The position numbers are program-made. From a virus: DNA of 16,064 bases. The DNA lies in UHGV virus genome UHGV-1966638. The stretch is one strand, 5' to 3'. Positions 12,001-15,000 of the stretch are shown piece by piece (positions within the stretch are counted from its first letter, which is position 1; each line of letters opens with the position of its first letter).

Positions 12001-15000
12001 GAATACATACACACGAAAACTTTGATTTAGGCTTAACCCGTTGATTCTTCCACAATCCTCAATTTGAGGAAGTCGGCGTGGTAACTCATTGAGATTAAAG
12101 CAAAGCGCAAAATTGCGCTGGCTGAATAATCATTATGATTACGCAGATGATTAAGGCCTAAGCCGTTGATTCTTTCGAAATCCCCCATTGGGGGAAACCG
12201 GAGCGGTTACGGCGGTAACTTGTTGATATTGTTCCAAAGCTCATTTTTGAGCTTTGGCCTGCTCAGTTTATTCAACTTCCGTCAGTGGTGGGCGTTGAGA
12301 AACACTGCTGCGTGGTATTACTCTAACCCATTGATGTTTATTGCTCATTTACTCGATTATTTGAGTTGTTCAAATTCACCAGTCGTAAAACCATGATTTG
12401 TACATCCCCGATATCGGGGTATGTAAACCATCCAGACCGGGCCAGCCAGCCAGCCCTGATTTTTACATCCCTCACTTCTGAGGGCTGATAACAAACCATC
12501 TTTAAGAGGGTCAGAACTACGAAATTTTCGTAGTTTAACTTTCATCCAGTGCATCTCCGAATTACGGGTATGTAACCACAGCTATTACGAGGCGATTGTT
12601 GATGCGTGATATTCAGCAGGTTCTGGAACGCAGGGGAGCGTGGGCGGCAAATAATCGCGAGAATGTGACCTGGTCATCCGTTGCCGCAGGAGTTAAGGGG
12701 ATTATTCCGGCAAAGATAACATCACGCCCACAGTGCTGTGACGATGATGCGATGGTGATATGCGGGTGCATAGCCCGCCTTTACCGGAACAATCGCGATC
12801 TGCATGAGTTGCTGGTTGATTACTACGTGCGGGGGATGACGTTTATGTCACTGGCGCAAAAACATGAATGCTCTGATGGGACTATCGGAAAGCGGCTGCA
12901 AAAAGCTGAAGGTGTTATTGAAGGAATGCTGATGATGCTGGATGTTCGGCTGGAGATGGATCGGTATGTTGAGCGCGATTCAGTGACGGCATAACGCGCA
13001 TAAAAAAACCGCACTCATGAGGAAACTGCGGCGGAGAAGTCAGACTTGCCAATCAATCATGAAAAACGTAATCGCCTGATAATTATGCCACGAAGCACGG
13101 AAAAACAGTACAGGCGGTGAGATATAGCCCTCAAATGGAGGGAAAATCCCCTAAAGCGAGGGATATCCATCAAAACGAGAGAACATCCCCTAAAATGGGG
13201 GATTTGCATCACGGAAAGGTGTCCATGACTGCTCTCCGCGCTATCGGGAGAGGCTTCTCGGCGGTTTTCGCTGAACGCATTCAACGTGATGTTGCCTCAA
13301 ATACCCCCTATTGTTGCCTCAAATCGACATGATGTCGCCTCAATTTTTTTGTGATTATTAATTAAATCAATACGTTAAGGCGTTTGAGGCAACTGAGGCG
13401 ACACATTTTTCCTATATATATAAAGCGTGTGAATGATCTGAATGGTGATAATCACCACGCAGACCATCCAGACAACCATAACGAACATCGTTACAGTTGG
13501 AGCTTTTACCCCGTTGGGGGGGAAAGGTGCACATCTGGATCATCATTATGGTGATCGAGGGTATGGCTAAAATGACCACACCCCACCAGCTTCATAGAGG
13601 ATAACCGGAAAAAATCCGGTAAATATTTGCCTGAGTAAGTCATCAAGCGCCTGCTAAATGTGTATAGAAATGTGTATAGGATTGATTTTAGAACATGTAG
13701 AAATGGCTTTATTACTGGTGTCATGGCTTTTTGTTCTGTTCCCTTCGCCGCTCCATGACCATTCTTAAAGTCTACTAACTTACTGAATCCTAAGGGATAC
13801 GGCTTAAAGCCTTCCAATAGTTTTACTCACTGTAACCAACACTGTGACTAACTTTGTTGAAGTAGTGAGCAGACCTAAGGTCTCAGTACATGCTCAATTC
13901 AAGAACCTACCTTTATCAGCGTAACGGTGTCTTTTACATCCGTCTTAGGATGAAGACCACGGGTCGCCTGACCGCTTCGCTTCCTTCTCACAACCGTTAT
14001 AAACTAGCGTCAGTATCACTACGGACTAAGGACAGACGCACCGCTATGGCTCACTCTCGGCACATCAAGTCAGCACTGAAGGCAATACACGCAGACAACC
14101 CTAGCGCGTCCTATGAGGAACTACGGGAGCACCTGAAGACCATTGTTGAGTGGGAACTTAGTGTCAGCCGTGATGACCTGAACGACCCTGAGTCCTACCA
14201 GCTTTACGTTGACCAGTACGATGACATTAAGTCCAACCTTCGGGAAGCTGTAGCGACTGAGCGTCTGACTGTAGACCAGCATCGCTATATCAATGACGTT
14301 ATCGGTGTGCTTAAGGCCTGTCAGGATAGACTCAAGGGTGATAGCTCTGGCCTGTTGTCTTACCTTGAGCCTGAGACCAGTAGTCTAAGACCGTCTGTCT
14401 CCTTATCTGTATCATCGGAGCCTGAAGTCCCTGAACCTAAAGCCCTGACCCTCGCGTCTCTCATTGAGCAGTACGAGCAGGAGAACGCCCAGAACTGGAA
14501 GCCAGCGACCCTGAGCGAGAACCGAGCGTCTCACTCTACGTTAATCGAGATATTCGACTATCTGGATATTCAGGATGTCGGCAAGGCGACCCGTTCAGAT
14601 ATGCTCAGGGTCCGTGAAGTCCTCCAGCAGATACCGAAGAACCGCAAGCAACGCTTTAAGTCTATGCCGCTGTCTGACCTGCTGAACCGGGAGTCTAAGA
14701 CTGACTGTCTGGATGTCGTTACCATCAACAATAAATACCTTATCAAGATGGCTGCTGTGTTTAAGTGGGCGGTACGCAACGACCTGATAGCTAAGAACCT
14801 GACAGAAGGTCTTGAGCTGAAAGTCCCGCAGCGTAAAGCCTCCGACGCTCGTGATGCGTTCAGTCCTGAGCAGGTAGGGCAACTACTGGTCGCAGCTAAA
14901 GCGTACTCGCAGAAGACCTCAGGGAAGCCATATCATTATTACGTCACCGCTCTGGCTGCAATCACTGGAGCGAGACTTAACGAGGTGGCCCAACTTCAGG

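Follow-up and report, generated by a model that had tools for sequence, protein, structure and literature searches.

Why should a phage satellite integrated in the chromosome of Escherichia coli carry a dense array of dissimilar palindromes directly upstream of its Q-family antiterminator gene? The question is raised by the virus genome UHGV-1966638, a sequence of 16,064 nucleotides (hereafter the window) that derives from an E. coli chromosomal island. The relatives of this island are phage satellites, either of a type ending in Q (our loci L003 and L004) or of a capsid-forming type (L002 and L006). A preliminary description of the window had noted the inverted repeats and offered operators for DNA-binding proteins, structured RNA, antitermination targets or a packaging site as explanations. 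Here we find that the array is modular in its anatomy and of phage provenance, that it is enriched in IHF consensus sequences which are phased with its palindromes, and that it carries no RNA signature. Of the explanations offered, protein-binding dyads in a multi-operator control region fit best, given the short loops, the fixed 17-nt spacing to IHF and the origin in regulator genes. We assign a probability of about 0.45 to the reading that the array is an IHF-phased set of operator mimics for the Roi, Rha and KilA-N proteins of helper phages; as judged from sequence, these proteins would bind there, and the array would sense the helper, act as a sponge or form a roadblock before Q.

Perfect inverted repeats, counted when the stem was at least 6 and the loop at most 8, occur nine times between 12026 and 12600, compared to a mean of 1.08 ± 1.0 and a maximum of 5 in 1000 dinucleotide-preserving shuffles. 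This is the densest inverted-repeat region of the window, which has a median of 1 per 575 nt, and every inverted repeat named in the preliminary description was recovered. The loops of the array palindromes are short, at 0–4 nt. A diverged direct repeat was also confirmed, with 76% identity over 63 nt between 12023–12085 and 12148–12210, at a spacing of 125. The palindromes A1 and A2 (Table 1) lie in register within it, and wherever they differ, the opposite arm shows the matching change. Such mirrored changes had been taken as compensatory; they are as described, but they parallel two roi-type phage alleles, and since two different phage alleles show them, they need not have arisen in place. 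The pair of repeats sharing an 'acatcc' flank is present as well (12391–12408 and 12454–12471, 89%), and a third 'ACATCC' copy is found at 12549–12575, just before the Q start, with the three hairpins located at 12400, 12461 and 12549. The array lies at the place originally given, except that its left boundary is further out, at ~11816. The stretch is indeed non-coding: Pfam finds nothing in its open reading frames (ORFs), and RefSeq annotates only a KilA-N pseudogene fragment.

The palindromes are accompanied by matches to the IHF consensus, for which the patterns WATCAANNNNTTR and WATCARNNNNTTR were used. The first pattern is found 6 times in the window, where 0.94 would be expected; three of these exact matches, at 12034, 12159 and 12216, lie in the array, each of them on the minus strand. 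In a family sample of 56 satellite arrays, totalling 41.9 kb, WATCARNNNNTTR occurs 137 times on the strand equivalent to the window's minus strand and 0 times on the opposite strand. The consensus positions are conserved across these arrays, with the NNNN segment found in 14 variants. A perfect palindrome lies downstream in 51 of the 63 distinct IHF contexts, and in 50 of these 51 its centre and the end of the IHF 13-mer are 16–18 nt apart, across 22 different palindromes ranging from 12 to 25 nt. For the four intact modules of the window, the centre-to-IHF distances are 17, 17.5, 17 and 17.5 nt. A distance that stays fixed regardless of stem length is expected from the geometry of double-stranded DNA, with a dimer seated beside an IHF bend, and would not be predicted for a hairpin. 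The array thus contains a series of predicted IHF sites.

The same order and spacing, palindrome followed by IHF consensus, recur in the roi genes of phages JLK-2012, HK620 and HK022. When A1 is compared with roi of JLK-2012 and HK620, the spacing is 16–17 nt in both phage and satellite, and in HK022 roi a single IHF consensus is present, 14 nt past the palindrome CTGCAtTGCAG. In work by Clerget and Boccard (1996), the Roi protein of HK022 is reported to bind a site within roi beside an IHF site, with IHF stabilising the complex. For the cognate Roi/Rha/KilA-N proteins there is no relative of solved structure. The A1 unit has the predicted layout of a Roi/Rha-type intragenic operator on the HK022 roi model, with equal spacing; it is 95% identical to a roi allele, and the HK022 palindrome recurs in the corresponding slot of some satellites. 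However, the phage site is single-copy and intragenic, whereas the array consists of at least four tandem modules of differing specificity, located outside genes, in a satellite that itself lacks roi. Operators assisted by IHF are known already, and so are satellites that respond to proteins of their helper; the array would be a variant of these.

The phage provenance is most readily seen module by module. Six of the palindromes are copies of palindromes found within phage coding sequence: roi, a second roi-type gene, a Phage_pRha gene, an antirepressor gene and two KilA-N genes. Several of them are palindromes that lambdoid and P22-like phages have in the DNA-binding-domain codons of antirepressor-type genes. 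The leftmost, KilA-N fragment has 94% identity to hkbK of HK620, where the same palindrome lies within the codons 'EKNHESVVF'. The roi fragment matches the antisense strand of roi from JLK-2012 and many Stx phages (95% over 82 nt; 92.6% over 27 amino acids by tblastn against Roi); it contains CCTCAAATTGAGG ('PQIE'), and its 'RINGL' codons, AATCAACGGGTTA, form an exact IHF consensus. The next unit aligns over 39 nt, at 87–90% identity, with Phage_pRha genes of 8 viral contigs read on their antisense strand; palindrome B with its flank is the antisense of 'AERNFALCYENNELQ' in these genes, where the palindrome encodes 'ERNFAL'. For the second roi-type unit, identity is ~80% to a roi-family 'DNA-binding protein' gene of the Stx2_14040 phage ('LPPMG', then the IHF consensus); A2 has a perfect 7-bp stem despite these ~80% flanks, and the palindrome of the nearest phage allele is imperfect. 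The antisense KilA-N module resembles a gene of Salmonella phage UPF_BP1 (86% over 43 nt, codons 'KAKAQKRALE'). Palindrome D was found exactly within ORFs of phage antirepressor (KilAC) genes, in phage-contig loci read out with their surrounding sequence; Pfam gives only the KilAC domain for these proteins, and their N-terminal likeness to Rha comes from alignment. In the alignment, the Rha-type palindromes share columns, as do the two KilA-N palindromes, which thus occupy one domain position.

Other members of the family fill out this picture. The homologue of the degenerate fourth module in L004 retains CCTCAAATTTGAG at the usual spacing, and L003 has a homologue of the second hairpin E copy at the same place. 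In other satellites the same slot is occupied by TTCCACAGaCTGTGGAA, which nearly matches the 'FPQTVE' palindrome from a gene of an Stx1 phage (86.5% over the surrounding 37 nt), or by CCTGCAaTGCAGG, which matches the 'PPALQ' palindrome of HK022 roi. Scans of viral contigs with patterns of 15–18 nt returned mostly chance hits and were filtered on flank similarity. The hairpin E pattern gave three hits in viral contigs, all unrelated; a weak match in the same orientation lies in non-coding DNA of HK620 (18918–18955), downstream of hkbK/hkbL. Hairpin C had no counterpart in the phage records searched.

Table 1. Features of the array and of the genes on either side of it (window coordinates).
Feature	Position	Strand	Basis or remark
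Small last gene of the satellite core, 5' part only (truncated)	11582-11755	+	Homology to L002 5753-6034
KilA-N gene fragment with palindrome AAAAACCACgaatctGTGGTTTTT (11825-11848)	11816-11896	+ (sense)	RefSeq pseudogene call
roi fragment (Roi amino acids 42-68) with IHF consensus (12034-12046) and palindrome A1 (12056-12070)	11995-12076	-	Homology
Inverted repeat TCCTCAAtTTGAGGA (A1)	12056-12070		
Rha-gene fragment ('RNFALC..NEL') with IHF-like site (12082-12094, one mismatch) and palindrome B AGCGCAAAATTGCGCT (12104-12119)	12080-12119	-	
Inverted repeat AGCGCAAaaTTGCGCT (B)	12104-12119		
Palindrome CTGAATAATCATtATGATTACGCAG	12122-12146	.	Same flanks with another palindrome at 13437-13463
Inverted repeat TAATCATtATGATTA	12127-12141		
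Second roi-type unit with IHF consensus (12159-12171) and palindrome A2 (12181-12195)	12148-12210	-	Direct repeat of unit 1
Inverted repeat TCCCCCAtTGGGGGA (A2)	12181-12195		
Remnant of the small gene's 3' end (..KPERLRR*)	12185-12218	+	Alignment to the intact genes of L002, L108, L132 and L057
IHF consensus (12216-12228) and palindrome CCAAAGCTCAttttTGAGCTTTGG (12234-12257), antisense KilA-N copy	12216-12257	-	
Inverted repeat CCAAAGCTCAttttTGAGCTTTGG	12234-12257		
Degenerate fourth module: near-IHF site TAACCCATTGATG (12324-12336) and palindrome ATTTGAgttgtTCAAAT (12359-12375)	12324-12375	-	
Inverted repeat ATTTGAgttgtTCAAAT	12359-12375		
'ACATCC' hairpin E ACATCCCCGatatCGGGGtATGT	12391-12426	+	
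Inverted repeat CCCCGATATCGGGG	12406-12419		
'ACATCC' hairpin C ACATCCCTCActtcTGAGGGCTGAT	12454-12490	+	Kept in related satellites
Inverted repeat CCCTCActtcTGAGGG	12469-12484		
Inverted repeat AACTACGAAAtTTTCGTAGTT (palindrome D)	12515-12535		
Palindrome D with short flank, antisense copy of 'LNYENFVV' codons	12515-12547	-	Flank match sets orientation
Second hairpin E copy GCATCTCCGaattaCGGGTATGT	12549-12575	+	78% identity; ~30 nt before the Q ribosome-binding site
Q-family antiterminator gene, downstream of the array	12602-12994	+	Pfam PF06530, E = 2.8e-48; RefSeq annotation

Such a patchwork could also be recombination debris. On this view, template switching or illegitimate recombination strikes preferentially at the palindromes of phage roi, rha and kilA genes, and the fragments have been gathered passively in the right-hand non-coding region of the satellite, with no function. 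The stretch is a mosaic of modules of 20–80 nt; parts of it are matched in ~880 of 5426 complete E. coli genomes and only 3 match it end to end, and the order and number of modules differ among related islands. Beyond E. coli, the pattern scan matched only Shigella and one contig of a metagenome-assembled genome. Plainly broken genes are part of the patchwork, namely the KilA-N pseudogene and the small last gene, which is uninterrupted, with 93 amino acids, in capsid-forming relatives and is split in the window into an ORF and a 3' remnant. One fragment is in the sense orientation and the remainder are antisense, and palindromes have decayed in some copies. However, passive accumulation would not yield an IHF consensus distributed 137 to 0 by strand, nor would it hold palindrome centres at 16–18 nt from IHF over 22 palindrome types. 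It also does not account for the intact stem of A2 between diverged flanks where the phage allele is imperfect, or for the conservation of the array, which at 86–92% equals that of the adjoining coding genes. The dyads are kept in homologous islands, and debris is, in our view, an unlikely explanation. The related concern that the region might prove on alignment to be a degraded coding sequence is borne out by half: roi, rha, kilA-N and the small gene's 3' end have contributed much of it, but as many separate fragments centred on palindromes. A single decayed gene was considered and rejected, as the fragments come from at least five genes in mixed orientation and the ORFs have no Pfam match. 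The ORF of the small gene (11582–11755) likewise gave no match in a Pfam search. The IHF site that follows opens with the stop codon of this gene, TAA (12216–12218).

If the palindromes were taken from phage genes, it is of interest what they do there. We assembled 80 Rha genes (loci L397–L476) from viral contigs, chosen solely by protein similarity to the island Rha. In 33 of the 53 distinct genes, a perfect inverted repeat (stem of at least 6) is centred no more than 6 nt from the codon junction N|F, where the rate elsewhere in the same loci predicts ~0.04 per gene. The sample holds 18 different palindromes, the arms of which change in mirrored fashion, so that flanking amino acids are altered in pairs. 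For example, ACC CGC AAC TTT TCG CGG GTT is found in place of ACC AGC AAC TTT TCG CTG GTT. The intragenic N|F palindrome is thus a general and selected feature of phage Rha genes. The proteins of five roi alleles are ~80–100% conserved outside the segment in which palindrome and IHF site lie. The roi palindrome and the hkbK palindrome each occur once in HK620, with no extra copies, and are therefore not regulon operators. The island's own Rha gene has the palindrome ACCCGCaattttcgGCGGGT at 2397–2416, which was not found in the array; the array therefore points to foreign regulators rather than the island's own. These observations suggest that the Rha 'NF' and KilA-N palindromes are a widespread and undescribed cis element in very common, functionally obscure phage genes. 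In the literature, of which our coverage was incomplete, no account of the array or of the Rha 'NF' palindrome turned up. A broader proposition joins the two findings: that genes of the Phage_pRha (including Roi) and KilA-N families hold a variable operator within the codons of their DNA-binding domain, the same nucleotides serving as operator and protein segment so that the two co-diversify, and that a family of E. coli phage satellites has gathered such operators, drawn from the lineages of many phages, on one common IHF-phased scaffold, as a multi-helper sensor or sponge that reads or titrates helper regulators. We regard this joint proposition as less likely than not.

A different role for the phage-derived sequences would be as antisense or structured RNA. 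The array would then be transcribed with the operon, and its antisense copies of roi, rha and kilA would pair with helper mRNAs, or yield small RNAs, to silence antirepressors. Consistent with this, five of the six fragments assigned to a source are antisense to island transcription, the matching of alleles would fit base pairing and protein binding equally, a ProQ/FinO protein is encoded by some relatives and a C4 antisense RNA is already used by the island. The plus strand also folds far better than its shuffles, with z = -4.55. However, the minus strand folds no worse, with z = -5.58, such that folding gives no advantage to the transcribed strand. Among 145 distinct stems of the family, the non-Watson-Crick positions read on the plus strand comprise 29 G·T and 44 A·C, contrary to selection on a plus-strand RNA. 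IHF binds DNA, and its consensus and phasing would have no meaning in RNA. In addition, loops of 0–4 nt leave too little room for kissing contacts, some of the matches extend over just 21–40 nt, one KilA-N fragment is in the sense orientation, and no module is bracketed by a promoter or terminator. Rfam covariance models gave no relevant match in the stretch: at gathering score, the sole hit in the whole window was the C4 RNA at 4106–4193, and at E ≤ 10 the best value for 11500–13900 was E = 0.78, with all candidates far under their gathering scores. A role as RNA is thus quite unlikely.

The suggestion that the repeats are a series of antitermination targets fared no better. In phage lambda, the nin region upstream of Q contains the terminators tR2–tR4, and the array likewise places a hairpin-forming series between the early genes and Q. 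Unlike those terminators, the array stems have no T-tracts on the coding (plus) strand. The array scan found neither promoter-like sites on the plus strand nor a convincing series of terminators; one weak plus-strand candidate was seen at 12247–12266, and the others, for example 12119–12104, were on the minus strand. In phages that have the Q type of the window, Q directly follows ninH and there is no array.

The position of the array offers another parallel. The E. coli chromosome contains bacterial interspersed mosaic elements (BIME-1), or repetitive IHF-binding palindromic (RIP) elements, which lie at operon 3' ends and combine palindromic units with an IHF site. By analogy, the array could stabilise upstream mRNA, slow transcription or organise the DNA locally, with no link to a helper phage. 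It is, like those elements, a non-coding mosaic of palindromic units, conserved linkers and IHF sites, in an arrangement similar to that of BIME-1/RIP. In capsid-forming relatives it directly follows the last gene of the packaging operon. On the other hand, the repetitive extragenic palindromic (REP) consensus unit was not found in the array, and the palindromes within one array are diverse, with no single consensus. The array is also restricted to one satellite family, and the analogy leaves the copies of phage genes with matching alleles unexplained. We consider this very unlikely as the explanation.

Finally, the array could consist of hairpin sites in single-stranded DNA (for priming, recombination or as mimics of transfer origins), or it could be a packaging (cos) site. 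IHF is a common accessory factor at such sites, the stems vary between conserved flanks, and genes for a primase-helicase and an SSB are present on the island. Nevertheless, no sequence resembling the lambda-type cosN, GGGCGGCGACCT, was present in 11760–12600 at up to 3 mismatches. In capsid-forming relatives, the array comes after terL and not before terS, away from the HNH/terS region where cos would be expected. Nor do the papers on cos of phage-inducible chromosomal islands (PICIs) and on capsid-forming PICIs describe anything resembling the array. A conserved nick-site motif after the stems is missing, and a probable replication origin with iterons lies elsewhere, at 7300–7620. Both forms of this explanation are highly improbable, and the packaging site entertained in the preliminary description is not supported.

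We return to the reading of the array as IHF-phased operator mimics. Each module would comprise an IHF site and then a short palindrome ~17 bp off, and the array as a whole would present mimic operators for the Roi, Rha and KilA-N proteins of several potential helper phages. Upon induction of or infection by a helper, its proteins could assemble on the array together with IHF, and the resulting complex might signal the presence of the helper, or stop or switch read-through into the satellite Q. Replicated copies of the satellite might also titrate the helper regulators, as a sponge. A partial precedent exists in satellite P4, the promoters of which carry sites for the Cox and Ogr regulators of its helper P2. 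There, as proposed here, sites in satellite DNA for DNA-binding proteins of the helper would couple the two programmes; the P4 sites, however, are placed at defined promoters and answer to a single helper, whereas the array has no recognisable promoter, brings together sites from several families of protein and is in phase with IHF. Helper recognition by the phage-inducible islands of E. coli is poorly understood. If the reading is true, it would provide a concrete and testable mechanism at the DNA level, and the helper range of a satellite could be predicted by matching palindrome alleles.

Several points weigh against this reading. The precedent for binding is limited to what is reported of HK022 roi, and the array sites themselves are known as sequences. 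The 137 sites and 63 contexts overstate the independent support, because many of the copies share a common descent. The array cannot serve in general to control Q, since capsid-forming relatives have the array and no Q. The 'NF' palindromes of phage Rha genes mostly have no neighbouring IHF site, so that the IHF scaffold would be a feature of the satellites. No phage gene source was found for hairpin types C and E or for the CTGAAT..CGCAGA palindrome; hairpin E, with its variable loops and conserved C·T mismatch, resembles a folded single strand more than an operator. In addition, the fragments reach 82 nt, which exceeds the needs of a binding site.

With respect to its genomic context, the island has all of its genes on the plus strand. 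The order is integrase, a gene with an AlpA-type helix-turn-helix, Rha, an Icd-like gene with the C4 antisense RNA, DUF4222, a DUF927 primase, SSB, a cytosine methyltransferase, the 57-amino-acid ORF of the small gene, a gap of ~840 nt that holds the array, Q and a GH15 gene. The capsid-forming islands L002 and L006 encode a protease, portal, HNH, terS and terL. The sequence from 11760 to 12600 is identical in strain JNEC-KY203. In this strain IS421 is located between the AlpA-type gene and rha, and the integrase and rha are annotated as frameshifted; the window has no IS421 (~2061–2127, compared to L001 2035–3147) and so stems from another, closely related strain. The C4 RNA (Rfam RF01695, 77.7 bits) falls inside the Icd-like gene region of RefSeq, and the island therefore carries an antisense immunity module of the P1/P7 type. 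In the Q-type relatives L003 (3323–4052) and L004 (2218–4393), the variable region upstream of the array has genes for a MazF toxin and for proteins of the ProQ/FinO and PerC families.

Repeats of other kinds were noted elsewhere in the window. The probable origin follows the DUF927 primase gene; its ~13 GTTGCCTCA iterons face both ways, and it also has an IHF consensus at 7574 and an AT-rich core. Of this origin, ~120 nt (7493–7608), IHF site included, are duplicated 3' of Q at 13285–13405. Between the integrase and AlpA-type genes, at 1229–1770, 7 perfect inverted repeats form a second cluster, among them an 11-bp stem followed by T's (1745–1770). Palindromes similar to those of the array, CCCTCaaatgGAGGG, CCCCTaaagcGAGGG and ATCCCCtaaaatGGGGGAT, are also found 3' of Q, at 13119–13203 and 13437–13497; at 13437–13463, ctgaaTGGTGATAATCACCAcgcaga has the flanks seen at 12122–12146 around a different palindrome. 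In L244, a phage with a related Q gene, a homologue of 13128–13203 is located several kb upstream of its Q. In L002, a further 800 nt of non-coding DNA (6290–7086) between the array and the tRNA-Ile at the end of the island is rich in palindromes, for example GTTGCAGATCTGCAAC and ACCGAGGGCGGAATTCCGCCTTCGGT.

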